Shown here: positions 1 to 13,726 of the stretch, piece by piece
Layout: the number at the start of each line of letters is the position of its first letter
How positions within the stretch are numbered: the first letter of the stretch is position 1
Source of the DNA: a virus
Length of the DNA: 13,726 nucleotides
Virus record (IMG/VR): IMGVR_UViG_3300045988_103295
Span: 1-13,726 of that record
Strand: one strand, 5' to 3'
The notes under the pieces: generated by a model
Seen by the model: only the letters and a program-made list of their open reading frames with translations
The model's database searches: none
What the model was told of the DNA's origin: nothing
Position numbers and translations under genes: made by a program

Positions 1-134
1 ATTCCTATAATAAAAAAATAATTGTCGGTTCCCCAACGTCTGTGAGTTAGTTATAACTATCTGCCTATTAGTCACCTCTAACCACACTTATAAACAACAT
101 TCAATGCATAACGTCTGTTATATAACGAGGTATC

Positions 135-182
135 AACTCAACTGTCAGTAGAAAAATTTGTTCCAAAACTCAACTAACAGTA
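135..182 (+). promoter_or_regulatory. Two direct repeats AACTCAACTnnCAGTA (135..150 and 167..182), operator-like, just upstream of the ITR promoter -35
   Basis: The two 16-nt copies match at 14/16 positions and their starts are 32 bp apart (about 3 helical turns). The first copy contains the palindrome ACTGTCAGT (141..149). A mirrored copy lies in the right ITR at 13545..13592. Confidence 0.5.
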
Positions 183-184
183 TC

Positions 185-213
185 TTCACATCATCCGCCG
201 AATGTGCTATTAT
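185..213 (+). promoter_or_regulatory. Left-end early promoter inside the ITR
   Basis: -35 TTCACA (185..190), a 17-nt spacer ending in TGC (extended -10), and -10 TATTAT (208..213). The predicted start is near 220. The leader carries AAAGGGA (249..255) 7 nt before the ATG at 263. Confidence 0.65.
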
Positions 214-262
214 ATACGTGTAAAGAGGAAGGAAACCTCACAAACCAGAAAGGGAATTTTTT

Positions 263-490
263 ATGAAGACCGTGAAAATCTCCGCCGATGCTTACACCCG
301 TCTGAAGCTCGAGCGTATCTATGACACTCGCTCCTATCGCTACATTGTTGATGAGGACAAGGTTTACCGCATTGCCATTGATGCTCTTGACACGTCCTCC
401 GCTTTGGCTGACGCAAGCGACATTAACCCGCACGGCTGGGAGCGCGTTTATCTGCGTCTGTCTAATGGGGAGGTCAAGGAATATGTCTGA
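263..490 (+). CDS. Early protein, 75 aa, unknown function; N-terminus MKTVKISADAYTRLKLE looks like a ribbon-helix-helix/antitoxin-type strand-helix
   Basis: ATG lies 4 nt after the ITR boundary, with the SD AAAGGGA upstream. First gene downstream of the ITR promoter. Confidence 0.7.
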   Translation: MKTVKISADAYTRLKLERIYDTRSYRYIVDEDKVYRIAIDALDTSSALADASDINPHGWERVYLRLSNGEVKEYV

Positions 491-698
491 TTTCCGGGTT
501 TTAGCGGTACAGTATCTCCGGGCTCAAACACTCACCCAAATAACAGATTTAGCCCGCCGAAGTTACAAGGGTGTTACCCATGAAGAACGCGAAGCTCTAA
601 TTGCCATCGCACGGGTTATCACTCGTGAAATTATAGCAAAGAGGCAAGAAGCCCGCAGGAAGGCCGTGCATGATGAAACAGGCAAAGCTAACTCGTGA
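483..698 (+). CDS. Early protein, 71 aa, helical and charged, unknown function
   Basis: The ATG at 483 is preceded by GGGGAGG and overlaps the stop of the upstream gene. The longer 321..698 ORF version lies out of frame inside the first gene. Confidence 0.6.
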   Translation: MSDFRVLAVQYLRAQTLTQITDLARRSYKGVTHEEREALIAIARVITREIIAKRQEARRKAVHDETGKANS

Positions 699-900
699 GC
701 AAATCGCCGACTTGTACCGCAAGGGTTACACATTTACAAAATCTTACTATTATTGGACAGCATGTGAGGATGCCAACATAGCAAATCGCATAACTCGTGC
801 GGAATTCATGGCGCGTTCCATCGCAGAACCGCTTCTTGGCGTTGAACAAGTCCGGATTTATGAGAGATTATATAAAGGGAGGAAGCCAGATGCACGCTAA
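670..900 (+). CDS. Early protein, 76 aa, unknown function
   Basis: ATGATG start preceded by AGGAAGG. Same strand and operon as the flanking small genes. Confidence 0.6.
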   Translation: MMKQAKLTREQIADLYRKGYTFTKSYYYWTACEDANIANRITRAEFMARSIAEPLLGVEQVRIYERLYKGRKPDAR

Positions 901-1135
901 TTACTTACTCGCTTGTTACGACGCGGACGGAAAGGAATTGTTTGTTTGTTGCGACGGGAAAACCCGTTACCAGTTTTTCACACGCAAAGCAGCTGCGAAA
1001 GCGCTTGAAAAAGCAATTGAATGCATTTCCGCGGTGCAGTGCGCAAAGCTCTATCGTCGCCGCCGTACCGGTGGTTATCGCTGGGTTGCTACACGTTTTC
1101 GCGGAGGGGCACATCTTGCGGCATGGGGTGAATAA
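890..1135 (+). CDS. Early protein, 81 aa, Cys- and Arg-rich, unknown function
   Basis: The ATG at 890 is preceded by AAAGGGAGGAAG (875..886) and overlaps the upstream stop. The gene ends at the TAA that enters the terminator palindrome. Confidence 0.6.
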   Translation: MHANYLLACYDADGKELFVCCDGKTRYQFFTRKAAAKALEKAIECISAVQCAKLYRRRRTGGYRWVATRFRGGAHLAAWGE

Positions 1136-1157
1136 AGGGAGGGCATGCCCTCCCTTT
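1134..1157. terminator. Bidirectional intrinsic terminator between the convergent left and right transcription units
   Basis: Perfect palindrome AAAGGGAGGGCA/TGCCCTCCCTTT. On either strand the GC-rich stem is followed by TTTATT. It sits between the stop at 1135 (+) and the stop at 1162 (-). Confidence 0.8.
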
Positions 1158-1161
1158 ATTG

Positions 1162-2616
1162 TTACACGCCAACCGCTATCCAGTCTACTGCGAACTGCTC
1201 ATGCGTCGATGTGCCGGAAAGCCTGATTTTAGCCGAACTTGTAGTTTTAGCAAAAATTAACTGGCTCCTTGTTACACTATCTGCTACTGCGCCCGTGTTG
1301 GCAAAAGTCGCAACCACAGTCGGGATTTCGGTAAATCCTGCCGACTGATAATCAATAATGGAGTCTTGGTCTTGGTACGCCAGCACATGCCCAGTTGCGA
1401 TTTTTGGCATATTCTGGAATTTGGCAATAGCTGTTTCCAAATCGGATAAGCGCGAATTGATAGAGGCTTTATCCGTCGGATAGTCCGATGTACCATTAAT
1501 AGCGGACCGATTATTCCAGCTCCAATTAAAGGCAGGGTTGATTCTGAGCGCCATTGGCACATTTTCCGACCAAACGCCGATGGTATCCCACAGCGTATTA
1601 TATTTCGATTCTGCGGGTTTCGTGCCGATTTTTTCCAGCGCCGATGAAGCGGTGGAAGCTGCCGTTGTTGCGGTTGACTTGGCAATAGCGGCGTTGTTGT
1701 CCGCCGTTTCCGCCTTGGTGTACGCCTCCTGCACTTCGGCTTCTACGTTACCTAATTCAGTAGCAAGTTGTCCAGTTTTTTCATCTACATACGACGTTGT
1801 TGCATATTGTTCGCCGCTGTCATTTCCTGCCACAAATACAAATGTTCGCACGCGGATGCGCATATAATCAGCTGTGTTTTCACCCTTGGAATTAGCTTCA
1901 ATTTCATAATGATTGTATTTTGCACCAGTTTCAGTAATAAGCGGTGAACATAACAAAATAATGTTATCAGAATTTCCAACATCCGTTACAACTGCCGTTT
2001 CGCGCTCAGCAATTGCGAAGTCGAACTCAGGCACAGTCGAAGAAGGTCTGAAGCGCGTTCCTCTTGCCGTATTTGCCGGAATGGAAATAACTGTTGTGCT
2101 GTTTTGCTTGACCAGCGAACCGGGTCTAAGCGCCCCCTCAATTGTGTTTAGACGCGCCTGAATAGTTCCTTTGGTAATATCATACATGCCATCAGTTCCA
2201 GCAATAGAACGATGATTTTCTTTTCCCTCCGCTTGCACTTGAAGCAATTTACTGCCGATTGCCTGTGTAGCGCCATATTCTCCAATGGTGCTCCAAATGC
2301 TGCCAAAATTTGGCACTGAAGGCTTTACGCCAATGTTTTTTTCCGCTTCCACCATTCGACCGTTTAGACCGCTGATGCTTGTCGTGTGTGCTGTAATCTG
2401 ATTTTGGAGCTCTTGGTCTGCGGTTGTTCGCGCGGAACGTTCGCCGCTGATTTTTTCGTCAAGCGCAGCATCTTGTTCGTCAACATATTCTTTGCTTACA
2501 TTGCCGCTTTTTTCCAGCGTATCAACTCTACCATCAAGTTCTTTGATTGATTTATAAGCCCAATCAAGATTCTGTTCGTGAAAATTCGTAAAGGGAAATT
2601 GCTCCCAAATACCCAT
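1162..2616 (-). CDS. Tail fibre / receptor-binding protein (gp12 position), 484 aa
   Basis: Last gene of the structural operon, RBS GGAGGTG. The N-terminus has heptad-like coiled-coil stretches. There are two tandem modules, each starting IGxKP...W.TIG. The C-terminal segment FTEIPTVVATF...FAVDWIAVGV resembles an H-type-lectin-like domain. Confidence 0.7.
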   Translation of the reverse strand: MGIWEQFPFTNFHEQNLDWAYKSIKELDGRVDTLEKSGNVSKEYVDEQDAALDEKISGERSARTTADQELQNQITAHTTSISGLNGRMVEAEKNIGVKPSVPNFGSIWSTIGEYGATQAIGSKLLQVQAEGKENHRSIAGTDGMYDITKGTIQARLNTIEGALRPGSLVKQNSTTVISIPANTARGTRFRPSSTVPEFDFAIAERETAVVTDVGNSDNIILLCSPLITETGAKYNHYEIEANSKGENTADYMRIRVRTFVFVAGNDSGEQYATTSYVDEKTGQLATELGNVEAEVQEAYTKAETADNNAAIAKSTATTAASTASSALEKIGTKPAESKYNTLWDTIGVWSENVPMALRINPAFNWSWNNRSAINGTSDYPTDKASINSRLSDLETAIAKFQNMPKIATGHVLAYQDQDSIIDYQSAGFTEIPTVVATFANTGAVADSVTRSQLIFAKTTSSAKIRLSGTSTHEQFAVDWIAVGV

Positions 2617-2632
2617 ATATTTACACCTCCTA

Positions 2633-3241
2633 TTAATACACCCAAATTAAAAACCGCTTTTGAAAATCCCGAATAACTGCATCATAGAAATTGAACATTG
2701 CAACGCGCCGTTCACTTTCCAGCATTTTCTGTGTTGTGGTTACGCCGATGTTACCATGAATACGCCCTTTTCGAGTTCCTGTGCTTGTTCCCGTTCCGGC
2801 ACTATCGCTTGTGTCCGCGCTGGTGCTTGCGCTGGTGCTTGCGCTATTGTCCGCAGGGTTTTGCAAATCATTGTAACCGTAAACCTGTTCTTTTGTTGAG
2901 CCGCTGGAAGTGTTGTTTGCGGAATTTGTATATCGTGAATTGTTTATGGTGCTTTCCTGCCATTCTTCAATTCTGTCATAATTTTCTATCGGATTATATT
3001 CCGCCGTTAGCGTTGCGGTAAGGTGTTCCCAGCTATATTGCGAGATGCTCGACCACACCCGAATTAGCGTTTTAAGTAAAGGTGGGGACGAATAAAGAAC
3101 GGGCATTTCTCCGCACTGCATCAATAGCGAATCAACGAAATCTTGCACCGATATATTAGAGGGAAATTCCACGCCGTCAAAGATGGAAGGGTCAAAATTA
3201 TACATTGTCGCCAGCATCACGCTCAATCTTATCACCTCCAT
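2633..3241 (-). CDS. Lower-collar-like / tail tube protein (gp11 position) with a Ser/Thr-rich low-complexity segment
   Basis: Assigned by synteny between the portal and fibre genes. The start is uncertain: the ATG at 3241 has no SD. Alternatives are TTG 3226 (GGAGG 8 nt upstream), ATG 3217, or ATG 3205 overlapping the portal stop. The function call rests on position only. Confidence 0.5.
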   Translation of the reverse strand: MEVIRLSVMLATMYNFDPSIFDGVEFPSNISVQDFVDSLLMQCGEMPVLYSSPPLLKTLIRVWSSISQYSWEHLTATLTAEYNPIENYDRIEEWQESTINNSRYTNSANNTSSGSTKEQVYGYNDLQNPADNSASTSASTSADTSDSAGTGTSTGTRKGRIHGNIGVTTTQKMLESERRVAMFNFYDAVIRDFQKRFLIWVY

Positions 3242-4121
3242 TTATGTCATGGTCAATCGGGTAACGTCTTTCACAGGTGATTGTCACGCCGAACGCGCTC
3301 TGAACCTTGCGGATGCAATCCTGTATGGTGTCAAACCATTGTGCAACGATTGTGTCGGTTTCAACGTCGTTCCGTTCCGCTTCAGCTGTAATCAACCGTT
3401 CTTTTTTGTCGGTGTTACAAGTCGGGATTCCTACGCGGGTGTCAAATTCTGCTTCAATTTGCCTCATGTTGGAAAGAATTCTGTCCGCAATATAGTTCTG
3501 TCCCACGTTCTGTGCGAATGGCGCCCACGAGGGGGATCCATCATCGTTAAAAAGGGCTTTATCCACCCATACCGCTAATTCTCCAGATGTTACCCTGTCC
3601 ATCAATTCTTTGCCAGTTTGTGCGGCATTTTTAGAACTGCACGCAAACACATAGGAAAGTTTAGAATTCATAATGTTCATTGCGAGCGATTCAACGGATG
3701 TTGCAAGTAAGTCCGCGTAATAATTAACAATGTCTAACGCGCCGTGATAATCGCGTTGCAACCGGAAAAGAACGCAATCCTTATCAATTTGCAAGCGCAT
3801 CGGTGGCAAAAGGGGATTTGCAATCATCACGGTTGTCGGTTGATAGAAAACATTGTATCCATACAATGCGCCAGCCTGCGGAATTACACCGTAACGCTTG
3901 CTGTTAAAAATCGCCACGCTTCCCCATGCATATAAACATCCGAGAAAATACGTATCGCTCCAACCTTCAGGCAAGCTCCATTTGAATTGACTTGTTAGTT
4001 TCTGGAATAAATAGCGCTGGTAGTATTGGAAAAGCGCCGTATTTTTGGTATGGCAAGTAGAGGGGGAAATACTCGACTCATAGGCATTAATACGGTTGTA
4101 ATCAAAGGGGGGATTATTCAC
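3198..4121 (-). CDS. Portal / upper collar connector protein (phi29 gp10 family), 307 aa
   Basis: Size matches phi29 gp10 (309 aa). GIPTCNTDKKERLITAEAERNDVETD parallels gp10 [26 protein letters not shown], and FKWSLPEGW parallels gp10 LFEWENLP. GTG start at 4121, preceded by GAGGAGG, with no in-frame ATG nearby. Confidence 0.85.
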   Translation of the reverse strand: MNNPPFDYNRINAYESSISPSTCHTKNTALFQYYQRYLFQKLTSQFKWSLPEGWSDTYFLGCLYAWGSVAIFNSKRYGVIPQAGALYGYNVFYQPTTVMIANPLLPPMRLQIDKDCVLFRLQRDYHGALDIVNYYADLLATSVESLAMNIMNSKLSYVFACSSKNAAQTGKELMDRVTSGELAVWVDKALFNDDGSPSWAPFAQNVGQNYIADRILSNMRQIEAEFDTRVGIPTCNTDKKERLITAEAERNDVETDTIVAQWFDTIQDCIRKVQSAFGVTITCERRYPIDHDINGGDKIERDAGDNV

Positions 4122-5580
4122 CGGTTTCCGCCTCCTCTATATAAAATCCTGATTGCATATAGCGTGTTAGTTCATCGCGTTCTTCTCCGTAACAATTAGT
4201 TACCGCCGACGTATCGGGATTATTTATAAGCGTATATCCTGATAAGTTTTCCAAATTAACTGTTGCGCAAAGAGGTCGCCCATTTATTTTGGCATTTTGT
4301 TCAGCAGTATATGTATATACAACATCTACATATTGCGGCATTGCGTATTTTGCAATAGAAGCGTTTGCTGAAAATGAGGATACAGAGCCAAAACCATCTG
4401 ACACCGAGGTTGCTATATTATTAATACTATCAGATACACTATTTAACGCTTTTGCATCCCCCAGAATCGCGGCACCGACGCCGCCTACACCAGCCGCGAC
4501 ACTTCCAGCTATTGAAATAACATCTTGCCCATATCCAGTTTGCGCTAATTGAATATCAACTCCAAATTGTGACTCCCGAACTCCTAACACATGATATTTG
4601 TTAGCCTCTGCGCCGCACAAATAATAAGCGATTGACCCTCCCGTTGTAAAATCTATATATGCCCTGATTGTTATATTTTCGCCATATTTAGTTAGCGACG
4701 TTGTGTCTACCTGAAAATAACCCCATGGGGCAAGATTGATTGCTATTTGCCTATACGGATAGCAATTTTTCCATTCATCCTGTTTAATATATCCAGTGCC
4801 GCAGTAAAAAGATTTTGTTGTAACGGTGGATGAAGATAACAGGCGCGCGGATGTGCCCGCCAATTCCCAACCTGAAACCTTAACAGTTGTTAAAGTATCT
4901 AATGTCGGTGGCTTTATAGGATACCATCTGCAAGATACGATATATTGAAAAGGATTTACAATAGCTTTTAACAGTTCCGCCGAAATTTCTGCAACATTTA
5001 CACCCATATAACTATAATCAGTTAGTAACTTACTTCTAAAATATGTAAATTGTGTTTGTGACATAACATAGTACGATACAGCACCAACTGCGGTAGCTTC
5101 CGCGCCGATGATACCTACAACATACCATCCCTCGGACATAACTGATACATAGCCAGTTCCATCTATTTCATAGGTTTGTTTTTCCCCTTTTGCCAAAATT
5201 GGCAAAGAAGTATCTATAATGCGTGAATTATACTTGCTTGCAGACCTGATAACATATTGCGTTGACTTCTTCAACCGCCCCCAAAAAGACGCTAATACAT
5301 CCGTACGCAATTCAAAAAAGACTCTGTTTCGCTCAAACGTTACATTTTCCACGAAATATGAGCGCTCAAACAATGGAATAAACACATAATTCACGCTTTG
5401 CGGTCTGTACCGGTTATTTGACCATATTAAACTTATAACAGGATTTTGTACATTTGTATTATCCTTCAATACAACATCATATTTTAGGCTATCTTCATAA
5501 GATGTTACCGATGGATTGTAGGTCGAATTTCTGCGTTTCCCGACATTGGTAAACCATGCTTCCATTCTTTTCATCTCCAT
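4114..5580 (-). CDS. Tail knob / distal tube protein (phi29 gp9-like), 488 aa
   Basis: The N-terminal segment NYVFIPLFERSYFVENVTFERNRVFFELRTDVLASFW resembles the conserved gp9 N-terminal block (...WFYAFVTELEF...HFEIDVLQTW). It lies immediately upstream of the portal gene, as in phi29. Confidence 0.7.
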   Translation of the reverse strand: MEMKRMEAWFTNVGKRRNSTYNPSVTSYEDSLKYDVVLKDNTNVQNPVISLIWSNNRYRPQSVNYVFIPLFERSYFVENVTFERNRVFFELRTDVLASFWGRLKKSTQYVIRSASKYNSRIIDTSLPILAKGEKQTYEIDGTGYVSVMSEGWYVVGIIGAEATAVGAVSYYVMSQTQFTYFRSKLLTDYSYMGVNVAEISAELLKAIVNPFQYIVSCRWYPIKPPTLDTLTTVKVSGWELAGTSARLLSSSTVTTKSFYCGTGYIKQDEWKNCYPYRQIAINLAPWGYFQVDTTSLTKYGENITIRAYIDFTTGGSIAYYLCGAEANKYHVLGVRESQFGVDIQLAQTGYGQDVISIAGSVAAGVGGVGAAILGDAKALNSVSDSINNIATSVSDGFGSVSSFSANASIAKYAMPQYVDVVYTYTAEQNAKINGRPLCATVNLENLSGYTLINNPDTSAVTNCYGEERDELTRYMQSGFYIEEAETGE

Positions 5581-6314
5581 TTATTAGCCGCTTTGCAAAT
5601 AAACCAAATAGGCAAGCTATTCAGATTGATTTTTTGTAATTTATCATACCAATAATTAGCCCATTGAATACGATATTTGCTCGTCGCTTCCCAATCCGTG
5701 ATTGCAGGGCGCTCATAGCATAGACAAAAACTCTTTGTCAACTGCTCAATATCTGTACTATCAGTAAAGTAAAAATCTTGGAAATCGGGATATATTGTGC
5801 CGCCCTCCCATTGATAGTTATGCTCTACCTCGTACATAATGCGCGCTATCTGGATGCTTCCGTTATACCAACAATCGAGCCCCGAATAGGCGCCATTTGT
5901 TCCAAATATTTCAAGCGCCCAATCTATATATTTGTCCGCGCCTGTCCATTGTACAAGCCCAAAACCGTATTTTTTCTCGGTATTTTGCTTGTAATTATTG
6001 GGGTCGGGACTCGGCGCATGTCCGCCTTGCCATATGGCGGGATTGAGTGTAGATTCCCGGCACATATTCCCCAGCATTGCCGCTATTTGTGGGACTTTCC
6101 ATCCGTTTTTATACAGACCAGTTGCAATAAGTACGCCGTTTGTTTCGCTCGCTGTCTCATGGTCTTGATAGTCAAAATATGGGTCGTCGTATATACTATA
6201 ATACCACTCCTGCGGCAACCGAAACGGCTTGTACCAATGGGGATAGCGGGTTGCTGTGCTGTCCACAGCAGGGACTATGTTGCTACCGGGCATCCTCTGT
6301 CTATCTCCTGCCAT
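5571..6314 (-). CDS. Virion-associated peptidoglycan hydrolase (phage tail lysozyme domain), 247 aa
   Basis: GNMCRESTLNPAIWQGG and YGFGLVQWTG match the signature of the phage tail lysozyme family (GN..ES.NP / GiGlaQWT). The ATG at 6314 is preceded by AGGAGG. The upstream ORF extension to 6386 lacks an SD. Confidence 0.75.
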   Translation of the reverse strand: MAGDRQRMPGSNIVPAVDSTATRYPHWYKPFRLPQEWYYSIYDDPYFDYQDHETASETNGVLIATGLYKNGWKVPQIAAMLGNMCRESTLNPAIWQGGHAPSPDPNNYKQNTEKKYGFGLVQWTGADKYIDWALEIFGTNGAYSGLDCWYNGSIQIARIMYEVEHNYQWEGGTIYPDFQDFYFTDSTDIEQLTKSFCLCYERPAITDWEATSKYRIQWANYWYDKLQKINLNSLPIWFICKAANKWR

Positions 6315-6387
6315 GTTGCGCCTCCTGCATTTTCTGGTAAAGTTATTTACCAACACATTTTGGAAAATCGCACAGAATCGCCTCAAA

Positions 6388-6465
6388 AGTAATAGCCCTG
6401 TATTTCTATGTTATTAACTTGGGCGCCTTATAGGGCCTGTTTTGTGCGAATACAGGGCTATTACT
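6388..6465 (-). terminator. Long hairpin after the capsid gene: 17-bp perfect inverted repeat around a 44-nt loop, followed by UUUU on the minus strand
   Basis: AGTAATAGCCCTGTATT (6388..6404) pairs with AATACAGGGCTATTACT (6449..6465). On the minus strand it begins 6 nt after the capsid stop and is followed by TTTTGAGG. Confidence 0.45.
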
Positions 6466-6471
6466 ATTAAG

Positions 6472-7647
6472 TTAATCCATCAGAATAACAATACCCTTTT
6501 CAGTAAAGTCAATGGCGTGTCGCTCGTTGTACTTCCAGAAAATATTGTAATACTCGCCCTTTGCGTTTGGCGGAGTCACCCTCTGCCGCGTGAGAATCGG
6601 ACTATAGCCGAATGCGTCACGGTCGCAAATAATCCCAAGCACGTTGCCCTGATTTACATCAGCCGTCGCCGTTGCAATAGTGCCGTCAGCATCGAGGTAC
6701 TGAGGCTTTACAACATTGATTTTCTGAGGGTCGGTCATAATCTGCCAGTAATTGACATATTCAACATCGCCCGCCATGCGAAGGAAATTGTCATGGAAAG
6801 TGTCCGCGAGCGCCATCATGTTAGTTTGATGCATAAACATCGAGTTAAGATAAACACGCTGTGCGGACTTTGGGCTGTGCTGGAGGAATACGCCATCTGC
6901 ACTATTGGTCTGATAAAGACTGGAATATTCTGTCAGCATATCGGACAAGTTAGCAAGACGGGAAAAAGCCCACTGTGTAAACGCTTTATAATTTGCGGGT
7001 TGCATAACGGTTGTAGCGGTTAGCTCAAGCCCTGTCAGCGTGTTATACTCTGTGAGCAGATGAATAACATCGGCTTTCTGTGCAATCTTGCCAGCGGCAA
7101 ACCCGGCAACGGTTGCGCGCGCGGTTTCTTCGTGCGTCTTCTCAATTTTGTTATTCATATTGGTCAGAATCATCGAAATAAATGCACCGAAATCTTCTGC
7201 AGAATTGAACGCCGTGTTTAACTGCGTTTCAAAAATAGTTTTTTCGTATTCGTAGCTTTGCTGACCATAAAAGTTAAACTGCGCAACCTTTGGTTTATGA
7301 ATCGTGTACTGGTCAACGCTTTCGCCGTCCGTCAAGTCGCAATAGGGATTATCTGTCAGGTCGTCAGGGTCGTCGATTGTCTTAATTTTCCTCACCCAGT
7401 TTCCCCACTGGTCGCCGGGAATCCGCATACCCTCAAACTTCGCTTTGTATGGGCGGCTGGAAAAAATTGTACGCGAAAGCATCTGCGAAATTGCGTTCAT
7501 TACAGGGTCGGCGCCCGTTTTCAACGCCTTCTGTCCGAGCGTCAACAACTGCTTAGTGTCAAGCGCGGCTGTATCCTGCCCGGTTGCATCTTTAAGCACT
7601 GCTTTCAGCAGGGTGCTAATTTTATCAATAGTCAGCGTATTCGCCAT
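6472..7647 (-). CDS. Major capsid protein, 391 aa
   Basis: Large ORF directly after the scaffold gene, with RBS GGAGGTG 7 nt upstream. Position and size fit the picovirus-type capsid gene. No diagnostic motif was recognised by eye. Confidence 0.75.
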   Translation of the reverse strand: MANTLTIDKISTLLKAVLKDATGQDTAALDTKQLLTLGQKALKTGADPVMNAISQMLSRTIFSSRPYKAKFEGMRIPGDQWGNWVRKIKTIDDPDDLTDNPYCDLTDGESVDQYTIHKPKVAQFNFYGQQSYEYEKTIFETQLNTAFNSAEDFGAFISMILTNMNNKIEKTHEETARATVAGFAAGKIAQKADVIHLLTEYNTLTGLELTATTVMQPANYKAFTQWAFSRLANLSDMLTEYSSLYQTNSADGVFLQHSPKSAQRVYLNSMFMHQTNMMALADTFHDNFLRMAGDVEYVNYWQIMTDPQKINVVKPQYLDADGTIATATADVNQGNVLGIICDRDAFGYSPILTRQRVTPPNAKGEYYNIFWKYNERHAIDFTEKGIVILMD

Positions 7648-7662
7648 ATTTTAACACCTCCA

Positions 7663-7983
7663 TCAGTTCGGGCGAATGATTTCCGACAAAACATCCTCCG
7701 CTGTCAACGGCTTGCTATTGTCAACCTGTGCATTCTGCAAATTGCCCTTCTGCACAATGCCGGTCAGGTTCGCAATTTGCTGGAAAACCTTGTCAAATTG
7801 CGCCTGTGTATTATCGGGTGCAGATGCCGGTGCAGATGCCGGTGCAGACGCCGGTGCAGATGCCGGTGCAGATGCCGGTGCAGATGCCGGTGCAGATGCA
7901 GGTGCATCAATCGTCATCAGCTTGCCGATTTGCTCCGCCGTAAATCCGGCTTTTGCCAGCGTCAAAATGTCAGATACATTCAT
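7663..7983 (-). CDS. Scaffolding-like protein, 106 aa, with an (APAS)x7 linker
   Basis: Small helical protein immediately upstream of the capsid gene (phi29 gp7 is 98 aa in the same position). RBS GGAGGT, and the start overlaps the endolysin stop (TAATG). Confidence 0.6.
   Translation of the reverse strand: MNVSDILTLAKAGFTAEQIGKLMTIDAPASAPASAPASAPASAPASAPASAPASAPDNTQAQFDKVFQQIANLTGIVQKGNLQNAQVDNSKPLTAEDVLSEIIRPN
7817..7907. repeat. 12-nt tandem repeat GGTGCAGATGCC, about 7.6 copies, in frame within the scaffold gene
   Basis: Direct reading finds units at 7817, 7829, 7841 (1 mismatch), 7853, 7865, 7877 and 7889 (1 mismatch), plus a partial unit. Translated on the minus strand they give APASAPAS... 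Confidence 0.95.
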
Positions 7984-8486
7984 TATTTGTTACCTCCATA
8001 TTTGTTTACAAGCGTTACAAGTTCACCGTATAGCTTTGAATATAGTTCGTTCTCATCCGGCACAGGCGTGTTGACAACCTCAGACGCATAGTATAGGCAA
8101 TTAGCCTTTGCGTGATGCGTCCACCGCTTTCTATTGTTAATTTTGTCCATCTGCACGCCGCCCTTCGTCGAGTGGATAACTTCTCCGTTTCCGATGTAGA
8201 TGCCAACATGTGAGGCATTAACTCCATCGGTATAGCGCTTTGGCTCGTTTCCATCATGTTTTATGGTAAACACCCATTCTCCTACATCGACATTATCAAA
8301 ATTGTCGGATTTATCATGCACAGCGTTGCGCCACATATCGTTTGAGCCTCGCCAGTCCTTTTTGATATTGGCATATTTTCTTAGACAGTATTCGACAAAT
8401 GCTTGACAATCAAGTGTGGCGTATGGGATTCCGATTAGATTATTTTTGTCTGCGCTGATTTTTTCCGCCCATTCTACTGCAATCAA
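7983..8486 (-). CDS. Endolysin, NlpC/P60-family cell wall peptidase, 167 aa
   Basis: Catalytic Cys context LDCQAFVEYC and the typical His block SHVGIYIGNGEVIHS. TTG start overlapping the holin stop (TTGA), preceded by GGTGATGA. Confidence 0.85.
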   Translation of the reverse strand: MIAVEWAEKISADKNNLIGIPYATLDCQAFVEYCLRKYANIKKDWRGSNDMWRNAVHDKSDNFDNVDVGEWVFTIKHDGNEPKRYTDGVNASHVGIYIGNGEVIHSTKGGVQMDKINNRKRWTHHAKANCLYYASEVVNTPVPDENELYSKLYGELVTLVNKYGGNK

Positions 8487-8677
8487 TTATCATCACCGCC
8501 CAACTTATCAATGAGGTGCTGCATCACAATCGTATTATTATTGATAGCGTCTTTTAATTCTGCGGTTTCTTCCCGGTGCTGTTCGCGCTCTTTGTTCCAG
8601 AAATAGAAAAGCGCGCAAGTGCAAGCAATCGGAAACCCTACGTTTGTAATGAGCGTAACAATGTCGGAAAATTCCAT
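8483..8677 (-). CDS. Holin, BhlA/UviB-like, 64 aa
   Basis: MEFSDIVTLITNVGFPIACTCALFYFWNKEREQ... has one N-terminal transmembrane segment followed by a charged coiled tail, as in BhlA-type holins. ATG 8677 is preceded by GGGAGGG. The GTG extension to 8701 lacks an SD. Confidence 0.75.
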   Translation of the reverse strand: MEFSDIVTLITNVGFPIACTCALFYFWNKEREQHREETAELKDAINNNTIVMQHLIDKLGGDDN

Positions 8678-8706
8678 ACACCCTCCCATCCCCGGAAACA
8701 CAAAAT

Positions 8707-8780
8707 GGCAATAGGGGTCGAGGCATACGACTATGCCATGCTCACCCTTCCGGGGTTGTCGTTCGAGCTACCCTATTGCC
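8707..8780 (-). ncRNA. 74-nt structured RNA element (three-way junction) at the 5' end of the late transcript; function unknown
   Basis: Coordinates below run 5' to 3' on the minus-strand RNA. P1 is a 10-bp stem, GGCAATAGGG (8780..8771) with CCCTATTGCC (8716..8707). P2 is GCUC (8768..8765) with GAGC (8743..8740), enclosing the hairpin ACCC-CGGAA-GGGU. P3 is GGCAUA-GUCG-UAUGCC (8737..8722). The element starts at the predicted transcription start and is followed by AUUUUGUGUUU. Confidence 0.55.
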
Positions 8781-8786
8781 GATTTT

Positions 8787-8815
8787 AATATAGCATAATT
8801 TTTTATATTTGTCAA
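8787..8815 (-). promoter_or_regulatory. Late promoter (near-consensus sigma70 type)
   Basis: On the minus strand: -35 TTGACA (8815..8810), a 17-nt spacer ending in TGC (extended -10), and -10 TATATT (8792..8787). The predicted start at about 8780 coincides with the first G of the structured RNA. Confidence 0.75.
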
Positions 8816-8818
8816 GGC

Positions 8819-9838
8819 TTATTTAATTATGCCGAAATATTGACAGAAAACAATTTCGCAAGCAGGGGATTCACAATAAATTTTCCGCTCAATATATGCT
8901 ATCATCAGATAGCGATAAAGCGTGCGAAATCGTAAACAATCATTTTCCGTAGTGCTGTATATCGGGCGCGTTCCTTGCCCGTGCGGGCTAATATAATATG
9001 TTCGATTGTTTTTGTGCCGATAAACTGTAATTTCACCACACGTTACAAGCGGCGTGTACTCTTTGAGGTTCGCGCTCATGGTTTGCAATACAGGTTTATC
9101 CAAAAAGCGATTTTCAAGCGACATATCTTTTATTTTATTATCTTTGAGTAGACGATAAAGCGCAGTTTCTCCCTTCTTCCTGCTGATAGGACTATTGCGC
9201 AAGTTTATCAGATACAATCCGCGCTCACCGTCTTTATATTCCTGTGTTTCCTGCTCCGCCATTTTATATGCAATCGTGATAAGCCCTAAACTTTGGAAAA
9301 TCGGGTTTACAATGCTGTTACTATTGGCAAGGCATAAACACTTCACAGGGGGCTTACCTTGCAGCTCTCTATTTCTGTTTATTGTTTCATATGCATTAAA
9401 AAACGCATCCCCTTCATTTTTGATTCTGCGCTCATGCGATTCTGGAATAAATTCATCAAATATGATAATTTCAATATCATGCGCGGAAAAACCGCGAATA
9501 TTTGATACACCAGATAAAGCCATTACATAGCCTGCCGGTGTGCTTTCCTCGTTGATATATACAGCCGTCGCTTCCTTGGAGACTTTATCCATTTCGAGAG
9601 ACACGGACATATCATCGCATACGGGCGCAAAAGGTGACATTTCAGGCGCGCTAATAACATCCGCTTGTAGTTTCGTTCGTCTCATATAGATAAATTTCAT
9701 TTTATGTTCAATCACATATTTAAGTGCGCCATAAGTTTTACCCGTACCTCTTGCGCCCGTCATGAGAATAAATGTATATTTTTGTTCTATGATTCTCGCC
9801 ATGTCAACATAGCCATTTTTCAAAAATAGGTTATTCAT
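8819..9838 (-). CDS. DNA packaging (encapsidation) ATPase, phi29 gp16-like, 339 aa
   Basis: Walker A GARGTGKT near the N-terminus and Walker B IEIIIFDEF. Size is close to gp16 (332 aa). RBS AGGAGGG. Confidence 0.85.
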   Translation of the reverse strand: MNNLFLKNGYVDMARIIEQKYTFILMTGARGTGKTYGALKYVIEHKMKFIYMRRTKLQADVISAPEMSPFAPVCDDMSVSLEMDKVSKEATAVYINEESTPAGYVMALSGVSNIRGFSAHDIEIIIFDEFIPESHERRIKNEGDAFFNAYETINRNRELQGKPPVKCLCLANSNSIVNPIFQSLGLITIAYKMAEQETQEYKDGERGLYLINLRNSPISRKKGETALYRLLKDNKIKDMSLENRFLDKPVLQTMSANLKEYTPLVTCGEITVYRHKNNRTYYISPHGQGTRPIYSTTENDCLRFRTLYRYLMIAYIERKIYCESPACEIVFCQYFGIIK

Positions 9839-9848
9839 ACGCCCTCCT

Positions 9849-9882
9849 AAAAAATAAAGGCATGGTTCATCGCCATGCCTTT
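9849..9882 (-). terminator. Intrinsic terminator between the replication genes and the ATPase gene
   Basis: Minus-strand RNA reads AAAGGCAUGG-CGAUGAA-CCAUGCCUUU followed by AUUUUUU, and directly abuts the ATPase SD. Confidence 0.75.
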
Positions 9883-9889
9883 ATATGCG

Positions 9890-10240
9890 TCACTCGAAAA
9901 TCAACTCGCAGGAAGTATAGTTACGATTATTCTTGCTCCGAATCTGTGTAATCTGCACCTTGAAGCCTACATCGTTCATTCCTGCCGTGCCCAGATAATC
10001 AACAATGGCGAGAAGTCGTTCGCTGAACGCTCTGCCGTTCGTGATGTAGGGCACGCCGTCAACGATAATTCCGCAACGAGGCTTAAATTCACCGTTGCTG
10101 TCAACGGTTTCTGCAACCGCCCAGGCATCAACCCGAACGGTTTTCTTCATCAACTCCGACATAGGGTGCCCTTCGCGGGAAAGCGTCAGCTTGTACAGTT
10201 CCGCCGGGGAAATGCTCTGATTAGTCTTCGTGTTACTCAT
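9890..10240 (-). CDS. Hypothetical protein, 116 aa; candidate replication accessory (SSB or DNA-binding) protein by position only
   Basis: ORF with RBS AGGAGGG immediately downstream of the polymerase gene. No motif recognised. Confidence 0.6.
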   Translation of the reverse strand: MSNTKTNQSISPAELYKLTLSREGHPMSELMKKTVRVDAWAVAETVDSNGEFKPRCGIIVDGVPYITNGRAFSERLLAIVDYLGTAGMNDVGFKVQITQIRSKNNRNYTSCELIFE

Positions 10241-10271
10241 GGTGAAGCCCTCCTAAATATTTGTTCGGCGG

Positions 10272-12290
10272 TTATCGCCTAATAAGATTATAGCACATAT
10301 TGCGGTCAGCGTCAACACTTATATAAGCGTTCTGCAATGCTTCGAGTAAGTCTGCGTATTTGTAGGTAATTCCCACCGCATACGTTGATGGGCGCAAGCA
10401 TACGTTTCGGGTTACTGTTAAATCATGCCCATCCACGCTGATTTTCTTGTATACATGGTCATTGTAAACACTTTCAAGCCCTCCCGCTTTTCGGAAAACA
10501 AAACCGGGCGCGAATTTTATAAGCCCCCCGGCTTCTTCCAGTTCATCAGCGCCGCCCCACTCTACAATGTCGCCCGCAGCGTTTTTACTGGATTTTTTTC
10601 GTACACCAGCAATAGTTATATCTATATGCCCCTTTTCATCCTGTGACGCATATTTTTTCGCCCCCCATGTTAAAAACTGATAATATTCACCCTCTATTTC
10701 TGCAACCCCCATATAGTGCAATGTTCCGTGGGGGTCTGCGGCACAGGCTCCATGTTCAAGGGATGCCGTCTTGCATCTTTTATTGTAGGATTCATAGCTA
10801 ATTGATTCTGATTTTATATATTTACAGCTATCCGTATCGGCATAAACAAAATTATTCCCTGCAATCTTTATCATTTCCTCCAACTCAAGCCTTGCGTACG
10901 CTGTAACCCATACACCCCATTGATACGGCAGGAATGATTTTTTGATATTTTTAATTACGTCTGTTTCCTGCTGAATGTATTCATCGCCGTCGAATATAAT
11001 ATCATCTTTTCCGGGGTCTGTGGCTGTCATGCCATATAAGCTATTCAGCAGATTCTTGCTTTTCATATATTCATATTCGCTCCCTTCAATTCCTTTAAGC
11101 GAAGTTTTGTTTGTATAGTAGCGTTTTATACAGTCCGTAAAAGGTTTTGGTAAATAGTCCTTCTCTGCCGTATATATATCTGTAAAATCAAATTCACCAT
11201 CATATTCTTCGAGAATTATCTGCATATCTACTTCTGTTACTTCAATCGTCAGTGCATCCGCTTCGAGAACGCGCCCATTGTCTTCAAGTGGATTTATTAA
11301 CATTTGACATTTACTTACAGGAATATAAGGACACCCCCACAACGGATTTCGCAAAGTCGCCCTAGTTATTGACATAGTGCAAAGAATTGCAAGCCCGGAT
11401 GCAAATGCACGCCTAATAGTTGCTATTCCGTCAGGACATTTTTTAAATGGCTTCATTGGAAATTTCTGGTTCAGCATTACATCAGGATAACTTGACGAAC
11501 GGTCGACGGATTCCACCCCAGAAAGCACCTTACCGACGAAATAGCGGTTAGCGTGCGTGTTCCCACCACGAAACGCCTTGCGCAGTTTTCTATATATTTC
11601 TTCCGTGGGTTTAAGCGCCCCCAGCGGTATTTGGCTTAACGCCTGTTTCGCATCCCTGCGAACGTAGCCCGTAGACGTGCGCGGAACTGAATACAGAGTG
11701 TCGCCGTCTTGCGAAATCTTCTTTTTGGCTGCTTCAAGTAATCCGATAACGTCATTTTGGCAATATTCAATCTCCGCTTCTGTTAGTTCAGTCCACGGAT
11801 AGCGGATTTTAGAATAGTCAAATTCCGCTCCGGACTTCTTCATGTGCTGGACATTCATTTCCTTCAGAAATTTTGAAAGCGTTTTATTCGTCCAGATGTA
11901 GGAACAGCGATATTCAATGCAACCGCAAGTTGCAGACAATATTTTCCGAGCTTTAAGACACTTAACATCAGAAAAATCATAAAGTCCTGCGAGGAATTGG
12001 AATTCATATGAAAGATTGTGAACAAGACAAATTATTGTAATTCCACCCAGTCGCGATTTTAATGCTTCCTGTAATGCAGTCCATTCTTCCCACGTTCTCC
12101 CATATGTGATATAGTATTCTCCGGCTACATAAAGCCCGCATTGCCAGATGTACATTACAGCATTATCATCTTCAAGCCGGGTTGTTTCAATGTCAAACGC
12201 CATCAGCGCATCAGCGTATACGATTTTAGCCCTTGGGTTATCAGGCGATAACGCCGTTATTTTTGAGATTCCCTCATATACGCTGAGCAT
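10272..12290 (-). CDS. Protein-primed family B DNA polymerase, 672 aa
   Basis: Exonuclease motifs: Exo I FDIET, Exo II HNLSYEFQF, Exo III YCQNDV. Polymerase motifs: A DRSSSYPDV, B KNLLNSLYG, C YADTDS, and KxY GAKKYA. The combination with ITRs and an upstream terminal-protein-sized gene indicates the protein-primed subgroup. Confidence 0.93.
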   Translation of the reverse strand: MLSVYEGISKITALSPDNPRAKIVYADALMAFDIETTRLEDDNAVMYIWQCGLYVAGEYYITYGRTWEEWTALQEALKSRLGGITIICLVHNLSYEFQFLAGLYDFSDVKCLKARKILSATCGCIEYRCSYIWTNKTLSKFLKEMNVQHMKKSGAEFDYSKIRYPWTELTEAEIEYCQNDVIGLLEAAKKKISQDGDTLYSVPRTSTGYVRRDAKQALSQIPLGALKPTEEIYRKLRKAFRGGNTHANRYFVGKVLSGVESVDRSSSYPDVMLNQKFPMKPFKKCPDGIATIRRAFASGLAILCTMSITRATLRNPLWGCPYIPVSKCQMLINPLEDNGRVLEADALTIEVTEVDMQIILEEYDGEFDFTDIYTAEKDYLPKPFTDCIKRYYTNKTSLKGIEGSEYEYMKSKNLLNSLYGMTATDPGKDDIIFDGDEYIQQETDVIKNIKKSFLPYQWGVWVTAYARLELEEMIKIAGNNFVYADTDSCKYIKSESISYESYNKRCKTASLEHGACAADPHGTLHYMGVAEIEGEYYQFLTWGAKKYASQDEKGHIDITIAGVRKKSSKNAAGDIVEWGGADELEEAGGLIKFAPGFVFRKAGGLESVYNDHVYKKISVDGHDLTVTRNVCLRPSTYAVGITYKYADLLEALQNAYISVDADRNMCYNLIRR

Positions 12291-12292
12291 TC

Positions 12293-12994
12293 CTAAATCT
12301 TCCCTTCTCTTTTGGCTTTTTCAAACATTGCGCGAACCGTTGAACCGCTCACAAATTCCCCTGCTTTAAGCCGTTCTTTATATCGCGCCCTTGCTTTATC
12401 GGCTTGTCGCTCCCAATAGTCCCACCTTTTTAATAAGTCCTCCCAGTCCGATTTTGCAAATTTCCGCTTAACGCGGGTAGTTCCTTCCTGCGATACATCA
12501 ACAATATCTTGCAAGATATAATAGTATTGCGCTTCTTTATTCGCATCGGCGTAAACCGCGAAAAATTTTCGGAATTGTAGAAAATCCTCATATATGAATG
12601 TTTCTTCTGTAAACCAACCACGCTGTAAGAGTGTTTCATATTCGCGTTTCCACTGGTTTTGTTGTGCCACAAATAACTGTTGTGGTGTTTTTGACCCGCT
12701 AACAACTTTCCACATGGCACGAATCTGCCGAACGCCTTCCTCAACTGTTCGTATCGTGGAGGGTTTATCCCAGTAATGTCTCTCATATTGTTTAATGCTT
12801 TCGTACTCTATCCCCTTCTTCCTTGCCGCCTTGAACCGCTTATCCATTAAATCAATAAGCGATTTCATCTCTTTTCTAACATCTTTTAGCGTCAAACCAG
12901 CTTTGGGAATTTTTGTACCTACATATACAGACGCGGGAAGCGGACGATTTTCAAGCGCTGTACTTTGCGCGAATCGTTTATTCCACCTTGCCAT
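12293..12994 (-). CDS. Candidate terminal protein, 233 aa
   Basis: Basic, Trp-rich, charged protein encoded immediately upstream of the polymerase gene with a 2-nt gap, as gp3/gp2 in phi29 (gp3 is 266 aa). RBS AAGGGGG. No sequence motif was recognised; assigned by synteny and genome type. Confidence 0.55.
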   Translation of the reverse strand: MARWNKRFAQSTALENRPLPASVYVGTKIPKAGLTLKDVRKEMKSLIDLMDKRFKAARKKGIEYESIKQYERHYWDKPSTIRTVEEGVRQIRAMWKVVSGSKTPQQLFVAQQNQWKREYETLLQRGWFTEETFIYEDFLQFRKFFAVYADANKEAQYYYILQDIVDVSQEGTTRVKRKFAKSDWEDLLKRWDYWERQADKARARYKERLKAGEFVSGSTVRAMFEKAKREGKI

Positions 12995-13163
12995 TTATAA
13001 GCCCCCTTCTCAACAATTCGTTGTAAACGGTTTTAATACAGAGGCGTGCGGCCTTTGACATATTGTCCATTCTGGTAATGCAGCAAATTTCTTTTAGTCG
13101 CTTCAAATCTTCTGGATACATGGATAGCGTCATTCTCTTATATCTACGTACTTTATTATTCAT
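12978..13163 (-). CDS. Ribbon-helix-helix (CopG/Arc-like) DNA-binding protein, 61 aa
   Basis: KRMTLSMYPEDLKRLKEICCITRMDNMSKAARLCIKTVYNELL fits a strand-helix-helix pattern. The preferred start ATG 13163 forms an ATGA overlap with the upstream mini-ORF stop. The alternative ATG 13178 has no SD. Confidence 0.6.
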   Translation of the reverse strand: MNNKVRRYKRMTLSMYPEDLKRLKEICCITRMDNMSKAARLCIKTVYNELLRRGLINGKVE

Positions 13164-13216
13164 TGTTGCAACCCCCATGTTACAAGAATTACAAGCATGA
13201 TTGCCGTTAGTAACAT
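13160..13216 (-). CDS. Possible 18-aa hydrophobic mini-ORF (MLLTAIMLVILVTWGLQQ)
   Basis: GGAGGTGA (13224..13231, minus strand) lies 10 nt upstream of ATG 13216 and serves no other start codon. The TGA stop overlaps the ATG of the RHH gene. Confidence 0.35.
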   Translation of the reverse strand: MLLTAIMLVILVTWGLQQ

Positions 13217-13233
13217 TTCGTTTTCACCTCCGG

Positions 13234-13464
13234 TTATTGTCTCCAAACGTAACGGGTTAAATTGTAATAGCGGGCAAGCGGTTCGATTTGTTCATAACCA
13301 ATAATTATGCCGCGGTCGCACTGCACCTTGAACGGAAAAACCTTTACCTCCGAACCATCATAAAGGCTTGCGATTCCGTAAATTATTCTACCCCCCTCCA
13401 CATAGTAACGGAAACCGCTGCGTGTGACGTGCCAACCTTCGCGGGTGATAATTGATTTATTCAT
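13234..13464 (-). CDS. Right-end early protein, 76 aa, unknown function
   Basis: ATG 13464 lies 4 nt inside the ITR boundary and uses the ITR-encoded SD. The TTG at 13470 is an alternative start. Confidence 0.65.
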   Translation of the reverse strand: MNKSIITREGWHVTRSGFRYYVEGGRIIYGIASLYDGSEVKVFPFKVQCDRGIIIGYEQIEPLARYYNLTRYVWRQ

Positions 13465-13468
13465 GTGC

Positions 13469-13726
13469 AATTCCCTTTCTGGTTTGTGAGGTTTCCTTCC
13501 TCTTTACACGTATATAATAGCACATTCGGCGGATGATGTGAAGATACTGTTAGTTGAGTTTTGGAACAAATTTTTCTACTGACAGTTGAGTTGATACCTC
13601 GTTATATAACAGACGTTATGCATTGAATGTTGTTTATAAGTGTGGTTAGAGGTGACTAATAGGCAGATAGTTATAACTAACTCACAGACGTTGGGGAACC
13701 GACAATTATTTTTTTATTATAGGAAT
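13469..13726. repeat. Right inverted terminal repeat (258 bp)
   Basis: Exact reverse complement of 1..258. Confidence 0.97.
13514..13542 (-). promoter_or_regulatory. Right-end early promoter inside the ITR (mirror of 185..213)
   Basis: Identical sequence by ITR symmetry: TTCACA, 17 nt (ending TGC), TATTAT on the minus strand, directed inward. Confidence 0.65.

Follow-up and report, generated by a model that had tools for sequence, protein, structure and literature searches.

For nearly 40 years the packaging (prohead) RNA (pRNA) of phage phi29 has been a one-off: it is the structural RNA of a viral DNA-packaging motor, it is known from phi29-like Bacillus phages only, and it underlies an entire RNA-nanotechnology toolkit. 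A 2024 review of phi29-like phages described pRNA as unique, so far as is known, to phi29 and related Bacillus phages (PMC11476376), and the 12 pRNAs added by a 2025 Infernal-based survey all came from Bacillus phages (PMC12670572), although reported pRNA detection in archaeal ampullaviruses has been mentioned (bioRxiv 10.1101/2020.07.06.188573). We analyzed a stretch of viral DNA of 13,726 nucleotides (nt), positions 1 to 13,726 of the IMG/VR record IMGVR_UViG_3300045988_103295 (hereafter, the window), in which a 74-nt three-way-junction RNA is predicted on the minus strand between a DNA-packaging ATPase gene and a holin gene. An earlier note on this DNA had offered three readings of the RNA, namely a packaging-RNA analogue, a terminated leader and a cis-acting switch on late gene translation, and had stated that RNAs of this kind are known from the Bacillus phi29 group alone; the statement agrees with the review and the survey, the ampullavirus mention aside. 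Judged from comparative sequence analysis, the window RNA is a copy of a real, widespread and undescribed RNA family of human-gut phi29-like podophages. A packaging role is the most probable function, at about even odds, and the arguments on both sides are given below.

The RNA and the signals around it, in window coordinates and in the order in which they would be transcribed, are as follows.

8810..8815, minus strand: -35 hexamer, TTGACA.
8787..8795, minus strand: extended -10 element, TGcTATATT (TG at 8795-8794, hexamer TATATT at 8792-8787).
8707..8780, minus strand: three-way-junction RNA, 74 nt, extending from G8780, the predicted start, through the last base of stem P1.
8771..8780, minus strand: 5' strand of P1, GGCAAUAGGG, paired with 8707-8716 over 10 base pairs (bp).
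8765..8768, minus strand: P2a, GCUC, paired with GAGC at 8740-8743; it corresponds to the C helix of pRNA.
8757..8764, minus strand: P2 bulge, GAACGACA, 8 nt, on the 5' side only; its CGAC (8761-8758) pairs with the P3 loop.
8744..8756, minus strand: apical hairpin P2b, ACCC-CGGAA-GGGU; it corresponds to helix E of pRNA with its loop.
8722..8737, minus strand: P3 hairpin, GGCAUA-GUCG-UAUGCC, with loop GUCG at 8731-8728; it corresponds to helix D of pRNA with its loop.
8717..8721, minus strand: junction strand J31, UCGAC; the family consensus is about NNGAA.
8707..8716, minus strand: 3' strand of P1, CCCUAUUGCC.
8696..8706, minus strand: U-rich tract, AUUUUGUGUUU, directly 3' of P1.
8690..8697, minus strand: site UUCCGGGG, complementary to the 5' strand plus loop of P2b (CCCCGGAA, 8755-8748).
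8681..8687, minus strand: Shine-Dalgarno sequence of the holin gene, GGGAGGG.

All of the sequence features on which the earlier note had relied (promoter, stems, loops and tracts) were found in place on the minus strand, and our folding agreed with a 10-bp closing stem and two hairpin arms that meet in a three-way junction. The strand opposite the P2 bulge had no unpaired bases, like that of the CE bulge of phi29 pRNA. When the RNA was folded as a single sequence, the minimum free energy was -33.4 kcal/mol (z = -1.83) and was equaled by 10 of 200 shuffles; folding the leader through the start codon gave z = -1.6. Given the z of -1.83 and the 10 shuffles, the fold alone was not above chance, and the decision falls to family comparison. 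ARAGORN called no tRNA or transfer-messenger RNA for this RNA, and Rfam (15) scans gave no match to any curated family, riboswitch and cis-regulatory classes included. The sole permissive Rfam match, to dfrA-dnaX, fell on the A/T-rich promoter and was rejected as chance.

Relatives of the locus were compared at two distances. In thirteen IMG/VR genomes with ATPases 92-97% identical, the RNA was almost invariant and the variation lay in the promoter spacer and the downstream leader; in one of these comparisons (locus L004) the first P1 pair was replaced, G-C by A-U. At loci with ATPases just 33-48% identical, the sequence at the site was very different, but the plan of the RNA was unchanged. 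This plan comprises P1 (8-14 bp), 0-2 nt, P2a (4-6 bp), a bulge of 7-8 nt on the 5' side only (typically AA-NNN-CA), P2b (4 bp) with its CGGAA loop, 0-2 nt, P3 (4-6 bp) with a loop of 4-7 nt (typically UG-NNN), a purine-rich strand of 4-6 nt and finally the 3' strand of P1. A covariance model built from 11 distant sequences, none of them from the window clade (model R1), recovered the window RNA at 8713-8774 with 24.9 bits (E = 0.003 in a 433-kb search). With a broader model (R2) the window RNA scored 58.3 bits, and 77 true copies were found in 96 sources; no locus had more than one, and each copy lay on the gene strand. Among 65 IMG/VR loci without a convergent gene after the ATPase, the model found the RNA in 62, and two more were recovered by parser or by eye.

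Pair counts were made on 60 distinct sequences out of the 77 copies. We found that 94.2% of pair cells were paired, compared with 58.4% after shuffling and 36-48% when partners were slid. A covariance-model scan of relatives, which the earlier note had proposed as a check, showed stems conserved with compensatory changes, both sides having changed in 23 of the 26 pairs; the covariation score was 0.903 against 0.200 for the control and was reached by none of 500 shuffles. Both-side changes were present in all 8 modeled pairs of P1 (96% of cells paired), in 3 of 4 pairs of P2a (99.6% paired; the P2a of L111, for example, was GCAC/GUGC) and in all 4 pairs of P2b (100% paired). The CGGAA apical loop was essentially invariant in the family, and the conserved unpaired bases were AA..CA in the bulge, CGGAA itself and GAA in J31. 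Rates of change were compared between genome pairs conditioned on ATPase DNA divergence; conditioning on stem similarity was discarded as biased. P1 and the three variable pairs of the pseudoknot changed at the rate of ATPase DNA or faster, P2a, P2b and P3 changed 2-4 times more slowly, and CGGAA remained unchanged throughout. This pattern fits a pairing-only constraint on P1 and on the kissing pair, together with a sequence-specific contact at the P2 apex. Nothing about the family was found in print: full-text literature searches gave no description of such an RNA in gut or Guelinviridae phages.

A second and independent line of evidence came from the contact between the P2 bulge and the P3 loop, since this helix is absent from the covariance model. 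Across the family, the last 4-6 bulge bases were Watson-Crick complementary to the P3 loop. Over 35 distinct bulge/loop combinations, the complementary run averaged 4.46 bp for cognate pairs, compared with 2.43 bp for non-cognate pairs and 2.53 bp for shuffled loops; runs of at least 4 bp occurred in 30 of the 35, and 23 distinct paired cores were counted. Of the cells in this helix, 81-85% were paired, and both sides had changed in 3-4 of the 5 pairs. The nearest outgroups of the window clade (loci L109-L112, ATPase 68-75% identical) illustrate how both strands changed together.

Window: bulge CGAC, loop GUCG.
L111: bulge CGUC, loop GGCG.
L109 and L112: bulge CACC, loop GGUG.
L110: bulge GAGAAA, loop UUUCUC.

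Besides, complementarity between bulge and loop was perfect in all of eleven further human-gut metagenome contigs, which form one subfamily. The family's longest contact was observed in L104 (MT835901, 6027-6094), which has 8 bp of complementarity (AAAAGGAA/UUCCUUUU) and an enlarged P3 loop. The earlier note had given the GUCG loop two possible partners. The covarying one, CGAC at 8761..8758 in the bulge, was retained. The other, CGAC at 8720-8717 in the junction, was rejected, as it reads UGAC, AGAC or CGAA in close relatives in which GUCG is unchanged. With regard to geometry, by the general three-way-junction rules of Lescoute and Westhof, junction strands of 0-2, 0-2 and 4-6 nt would place P3 either coaxial with P2 or bent toward P1. 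In either case the P3 loop would face away from the bulge of its own P2, so that pairing between molecules would be favored by this geometry.

The promoter was also a property of the family. In the window it reads TTGACA-17-TATATT, with a 17-nt spacer ending in TGC, and matches the consensus at 11 of 12 positions in addition to the extended -10 TG. The earlier note had called it the best promoter in the window; its score of 11/12 was indeed the top one, but it was shared with a second site at 10315..10287. This second site, TTGACG-17-TATAAT with TG (10287-10315, minus strand), is near consensus and lies within the 3' end of the polymerase gene. The predicted start, G8780, is 7 nt past the -10 element and opens P1, so that the first base of the RNA is where the earlier note had placed it. 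TTGACA was kept at an equal distance upstream of P1 in nearly all relatives, whose promoters read TTGACA / TAtAAT; the -10 element ended 5-9 nt before P1 in nearly every locus. As the promoter was kept directly before P1 across loci, firing of a promoter into the RNA is a conserved property. In many relatives (L034-L098) the -35 hexamer lies within conserved C-terminal codons of the ATPase gene (...CTTGACAAA...), and these bases do double duty for protein and promoter. Unrelated phages matched only the promoter part when the region was compared with phage genomes by blastn. The gap between ATPase and holin genes, given as 117 nt in the earlier note, is actually 141 nt, the holin most likely starting at ATG 8677 behind GGGAGGG. 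A GTG at 8701 was rejected as the holin start: it is a mechanical open reading frame (ORF) start within the U-rich tract, and ATG 8677 with its Shine-Dalgarno sequence was preferred.

Some phages at the margins of the family were informative. In the cultured Amedibacillus phage AD70P3 (L100; ~6296-6367, minus strand), a related RNA was observed behind TTGACA-17-TATATT in the 123-nt gap after the packaging ATPase gene, with the apex loop CCGAA and the bulge AUAUCCAA. It was missed by both covariance models and was found by eye and by a structure-descriptor search; in the window the same descriptor matched the window RNA and nothing else. When the AD70P3 ATPase was used as the lone query, one locus was found, and an alignment of eight distant ATPases contained no conserved stretch usable for searching. 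At the equivalent position of MT837693 (L015; ~2583-2720) we observed a multi-branched RNA that is longer (~105 nt), lacks the CGGAA hairpin and is followed by a canonical terminator; it may be a divergent or a different RNA, and folding it did not reveal the same layout. Folding the non-coding region before the late genes of Bifidobacterium phage BD811P1 did not reveal this layout either. Neither R2, which gave no match, nor the descriptor search, which gave only unconvincing matches within coding sequence, found the RNA in BD811P1, Microbacterium phage PineapplePizza or MT835861.

The phage that carries the RNA is phi29-like. The window is a full-length linear genome of 13,726 bp; its inverted terminal repeats of 267 nt (1-267 and 13460-13726, 99% complementary), found at both ends, indicate that the genome is complete, linear and presumably replicated by protein priming. 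Each repeat carries an identical inward-facing promoter-like site, TTCACA-17-TATTAT with TG. Nearly every long gene lies on the minus strand, and the genes that matter here are the following.

10272-12290: protein-primed type B DNA polymerase.
8819..9838, minus strand: gp16-type DNA-packaging ATPase (Pfam PF05894, 3.4e-20), directly upstream of the RNA.
8483..8677, minus strand: holin of 64 amino acids (aa), gene 1 of the late operon, ATG at 8677 (PHROG phrog_4898, E = 1.7e-4).
6472-7647: phi29-type major capsid protein.
3198..4121, minus strand: gp10-type connector, or portal (Pfam PF05352, 2.3e-17).
Elsewhere in the window: a gene for an NlpC/P60 lysin.

Residues 25-302 of the ATPase aligned with residues 21-284 of phi29 gp16 (7JQQ_A; E = 2.4e-16), an alignment that covers the N-terminal domain and, of the C-terminal domain that binds pRNA, the greater part. 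Its family is large (2,024 database proteins at E 1e-10 or better), and its relatives were found in uncultured human-gut phages, in two cultured Amedibacillus phages (Guelinviridae) and, more distantly, in the Bacillus phi29 group; once gut-metagenome and Amedibacillus phages were set aside, ATPases of the phi29 group were the top matches among deposited phages. The gp10-type connector would be the expected docking partner for a packaging RNA. Homologues of the holin are first genes in relatives too, and the RNA was the sole widely conserved non-coding element of the genome; conservation of the other long gap, 6387-6471, extended to some close relatives only.

The layout of phi29 pRNA, taken from the consensus structure of Rfam family RF00044, was compared with that of the gut family part by part. 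The order of parts was identical, with the gut RNA about half the size of the prohead-binding domain layout of pRNA. The base of the first arm is a 9-bp C helix in phi29 and a 4-6-bp P2a in the gut family. The bulge, on the 5' side only in both, has 9 nt in phi29, of which the last four (AACC) pair, and 7-8 nt in the gut family, of which the last 4-6 pair. The apical helix has 4 bp in each; it is capped by 6 nt in phi29 and by 5 nt, the invariant CGGAA, in the gut family. The second arm has 6 bp in phi29 (D helix) and 5-6 bp in the gut family (P3), and its loop has 5 nt in both, UGGUU in phi29 (GGUU pairs) and UGNNN in most gut members; the window's own GUCG loop is unlike the latter. The helix that pairs the two ends is a long, bulged A helix in phi29, whereas P1 has 8-14 bp.

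On these grounds the most probable explanation, at about even odds, is a packaging RNA in miniature, which would at the same time form the start of the late operon. Of the three readings offered earlier, the packaging-RNA analogue was the best supported, by the motor gene homologues, the pRNA layout and the covarying pair of loop and bulge, but detectable membership in RF00044 did not hold. At the gathering score RF00044 gave no match in the window or in 7 related loci (the phi29 control scored 145 bits), and within 8600-8900 it gave none at E up to 10. The sigma-70 consensus promoter sets the predicted transcript start at the first base of P1. In a packaging role, and by analogy with phi29 pRNA, bulge and loop would pair between molecules, so that the RNAs form a closed ring on the prohead. 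Contacts with the connector and the shell would be made by the P2/P3 domain and the CGGAA loop, and P1 would project outward to dock the gp16 ATPase. Free RNA would arise from leaky termination at P1 and AUUUUGUGUUU, or in other lineages from a separate terminator or from tRNA processing, and the read-through transcripts would serve as the mRNA for holin, lysin and structural proteins. In those transcripts UUCCGGGG might invade the P2b apex and hide the CGGAA loop, which would either prevent the copy within the mRNA from binding to proheads or adjust holin translation. The combined model is that gut phi29-like phages place a minimal pRNA of ~70 nt in the 5' end of the late operon, that the motor RNA and the mRNA for lysis and structural proteins share one promoter, and that covarying pairing of apex and leader silences the mRNA copy or couples holin translation to the pool of free RNA. 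We hold this model tentatively, as falling a little short of an even chance.

Several observations weigh against a packaging role. There was no similarity between covariance models in either direction: R2 missed the left end of phi29, and RF00044 missed the gut RNAs. A long A helix (over 20 bp) with the bulge that ATPase function needs in phi29 was not seen, P1 having 10 bp in the window and 8-14 bp in most of the family, which has no conserved bulge there. The longest junction strand is C-D (UUU) in phi29, whereas it is P3-P1 in the gut family. In phi29 gp10 a basic RKR motif at the N-terminus binds pRNA, and the N-terminus of the window connector lacks this motif. As noted above, R2 and the descriptor search found no related RNA in the Bifidobacterium and Microbacterium phages. 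Moreover, the contact between bulge and loop may be an intramolecular pseudoknot. Most lineages have no terminator-like tail, with the ribosome-binding site 15-30 nt on, and a discrete RNA would therefore need processing there. Finally, the RNA is linked to the late operon and not to the ATPase gene, which resembles a cis-acting leader. In the MT835998 clade (L099 and loci L026-L033) the ATPase gene was observed on the opposite strand, with a terminator and then a convergent gene behind it. In MT835998 itself the ATPase gene (9411-10430) and the RNA (1046-1124) are 8 kb apart, and the order at the RNA is promoter, RNA, holin, scaffold and capsid protein, with a U-rich tail. In other genomes a scaffold gene instead of a holin gene comes first after the RNA. 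Both this clade and the scaffold-first genomes indicate that the invariant neighbor is the start of the late operon rather than the ATPase gene.

This linkage leads to the alternative that we consider possible but clearly less probable than a packaging role: a purely cis-acting leader of the late operon, which would act on its own transcript and in which bulge and loop would form an intramolecular pseudoknot. It could work as a promoter-proximal attenuator, as a put-like antitermination RNA that modifies RNA polymerase, or as a translational tuner of the first late gene through pairing of the apex with UCCGG. The RNA starts at +1 and was always located between the promoter and the first late gene (holin or scaffold), whether or not the ATPase gene was nearby, and folds with similar junctions and pseudoknots are generally known from riboswitches such as the tetrahydrofolate (THF) riboswitch. 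However, a simple leader would leave unexplained why a pRNA layout is matched in a phage with phi29-like motor proteins, and no Rfam cis-regulatory family was matched.

The 3' end bears on both possibilities. A U-rich tail directly after P1 was present in 20 of 53 distinct members, the entire window clade among them, and AUUUUGUGUUU is a possible weak, leaky terminator on sequence grounds. P1 (10 bp, 5 of them G-C) followed by AUUUUGUGUUU was not called by a simple terminator scan, and P1 closes a branched structure. Separate canonical terminators follow the RNA in the L036 clade and in L015 (MT837693). The terminated-leader reading was accordingly upheld in part, by the U-tail of the window clade and the terminators of two other clades, but a U-tract or terminator is not universal. 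No Q-like antiterminator was annotated in Pfam and PHROG scans of the larger ORFs, which were not aimed at antiterminators. In MT836587 (L107; 8489-8564, minus strand) we observed a tRNA-Gln (UUG) between the RNA and the first late gene, with one consensus promoter. Because this tRNA directly follows the RNA, tRNA processing would release the RNA; the tRNA also parts the RNA from the mRNA, contrary to what translational or stability control in cis would need. With regard to a discrete small transcript, then, the promoter is nearly universal, and a 3' end is plausible in the window, L036 and L015 clades and in MT836587, with no obvious signal elsewhere. A metagenome scan for transcript ends returned human-gut DNA assemblies only.

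Pairing of the apex with the leader also speaks for control in cis. Of 55 distinct loci, 24 had a UCCG core at a distance of 6-12 nt downstream of P1, whereas shuffles predicted 3.1 (maximum 9 in 500). The 3' flank of UCCG formed 2.38 further pairs with the cognate P2b strand and 1.30 with non-cognate strands. In MT835998 the equivalent pair, GGACGGA/UCCGUCC, is not palindromic, which indicates that this pairing is more than a shared CCGG palindrome. In the window the UUCCGGGG/CCCCGGAA duplex was estimated at -18 kcal/mol and P2b at about -5 kcal/mol, and the duplex would therefore easily displace P2b in a read-through transcript. The idea of a cis-acting switch was thus supported in part: the UUCCGGGG/CCCCGGAA pairing recurs in ~45% of lineages with covarying flanks, but the UCCG site lies just 5' of the Shine-Dalgarno sequence, never over it, and is missing in ~55% of lineages. 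Also, the site is downstream of any terminator and hence cannot control termination. This pairing may hide the apex of those copies that are part of an mRNA, or it may adjust translation initiation of the first late gene.

Three further explanations are very unlikely, to similar degrees. One is a 5'-terminal stabilizer or processing module that shields the late mRNA from nucleases dependent on the 5' end (RNase J or RNase E), with no function in trans. P1 starts at the predicted start or 1-3 nt from it in nearly all loci and evolves freely while its pairing is kept, and 5' stem-loops are known mRNA stabilizers in Gram-positive bacteria; however, one hairpin would suffice for this purpose, and the three-way junction, the covarying pseudoknot, the invariant CGGAA and the tRNA arrangement in MT836587 would be left unexplained. 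The second is another role in trans, for example as a decoy for host defense or as a small RNA whose CGGAA loop recognizes either UCCGG in the late mRNA or some host transcript: the RNA has its own strong promoter, an invariant apical loop and complementarity of this loop to a site in the late leader, but there is no specific evidence for such a role, and architecture and phage type indicate the packaging motor. The third is a ligand-sensing riboswitch or protein-binding aptamer that times late genes or lysis. Although the compact three-way junction with a pseudoknot is like known aptamers, some unpaired bases are conserved (AA..CA, CGGAA and the GAA of J31) and the alternative pairing adjoins the ribosome-binding site, no Rfam riboswitch was matched, conserved junction nucleotides are few, J31 differs in the window clade and roughly half of the lineages lack an expression platform. 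A chance fold without function, for which only the single-sequence z of -1.8 could be quoted, is already refuted by the massive compensatory change at 77 homologous loci and retains a negligible probability.

If the packaging reading is true, this RNA would be by far the smallest pRNA and the first from phages other than the Bacillus phi29 group. It would show whether an RNA adaptor is ancestral to gp16-type motors or confined to one lineage, and it would offer a self-assembling three-way-junction motif of natural origin, 70 nt in length, for which dozens of orthogonal kissing pairs exist. As cultured Amedibacillus phages carry a related RNA, the packaging idea is directly testable. If the RNA is merely a cis-acting leader, it would still represent a new and widespread class of structured RNA, in which a pseudoknot is combined with another long-range pairing that covaries, and which would control late genes in phages abundant in the human gut.

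Other features of the genome were noted as well. A putative scaffold protein (106 aa; 7663-7983, minus strand) contains eight tandem APAS repeats, and scaffold proteins of relatives have PAAPAAPAA or TPTPTP runs at the equivalent place. A strong intrinsic terminator with a 12-bp stem and UUUUUU (9854-9884, minus strand) is located between a 116-aa ORF and the ATPase start; since it precedes this start, ATPase expression would need read-through. After the capsid gene (6382-6471, minus strand) there is a hairpin with a perfect 23-bp stem and a 44-nt loop, followed by CUUUUGAGG (minimum free energy -41.5 kcal/mol, z = -5.6). It was kept only in some close relatives (L002, L004, L010 and L011; shorter in L008 and L009), and for that reason it was rejected as the possible pRNA of this phage; an attenuator located after the capsid gene, or an insertion, would be possible identities.

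Among known systems other than pRNA, three deserve comparison. In lambda PR'-6S-tR', a constitutive promoter at the late operon makes a short RNA that ends at a promoter-proximal terminator, and the late genes are reached by read-through alone; a conserved fold is lacking in the 6S RNA itself, and the system needs Q protein and a qut site. The gut RNA is likewise a short RNA at the start of a late operon for lysis and structural genes, but its three-way junction covaries, terminators come after it in some lineages only, and no Q-like gene was identified in the scans described above. The put RNAs of HK022 mediate processive antitermination in cis and consist of two adjacent stem-loops. Like them, the gut RNA is a promoter-proximal structured RNA of ~70 nt that heads a long operon, in a phage with little room for a protein antiterminator; unlike them, it has a three-way junction and a pseudoknot, and terminators to override are missing in most lineages. 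The THF riboswitch is a three-way junction with a pseudoknot between a loop and an internal loop. The gut RNA is similar to it in size, in its three-way junction and in the Watson-Crick contact of a hairpin loop with an internal loop of the neighboring arm, and differs from it in having no Rfam match, few conserved junction bases, junction strands of 0-2, 0-2 and 4-6 nt and a phage late-operon context. With regard to phi29 pRNA itself, the gene is located at the genome end in phi29 and at the head of the late operon in the gut family, where read-through into mRNA is possible; the RNA is 117-174 nt long in the former and about 70 nt in the latter; and many gut lineages have, unlike phi29 pRNA, an extra site that pairs with the apex. 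On the other hand, both phages have a gp16 ATPase, a gp10 connector, a phi29-type capsid protein and protein-primed replication, and in both the RNA has a strong sigma-70-type promoter, 5' and 3' ends that pair in a closing helix, and a three-way junction.

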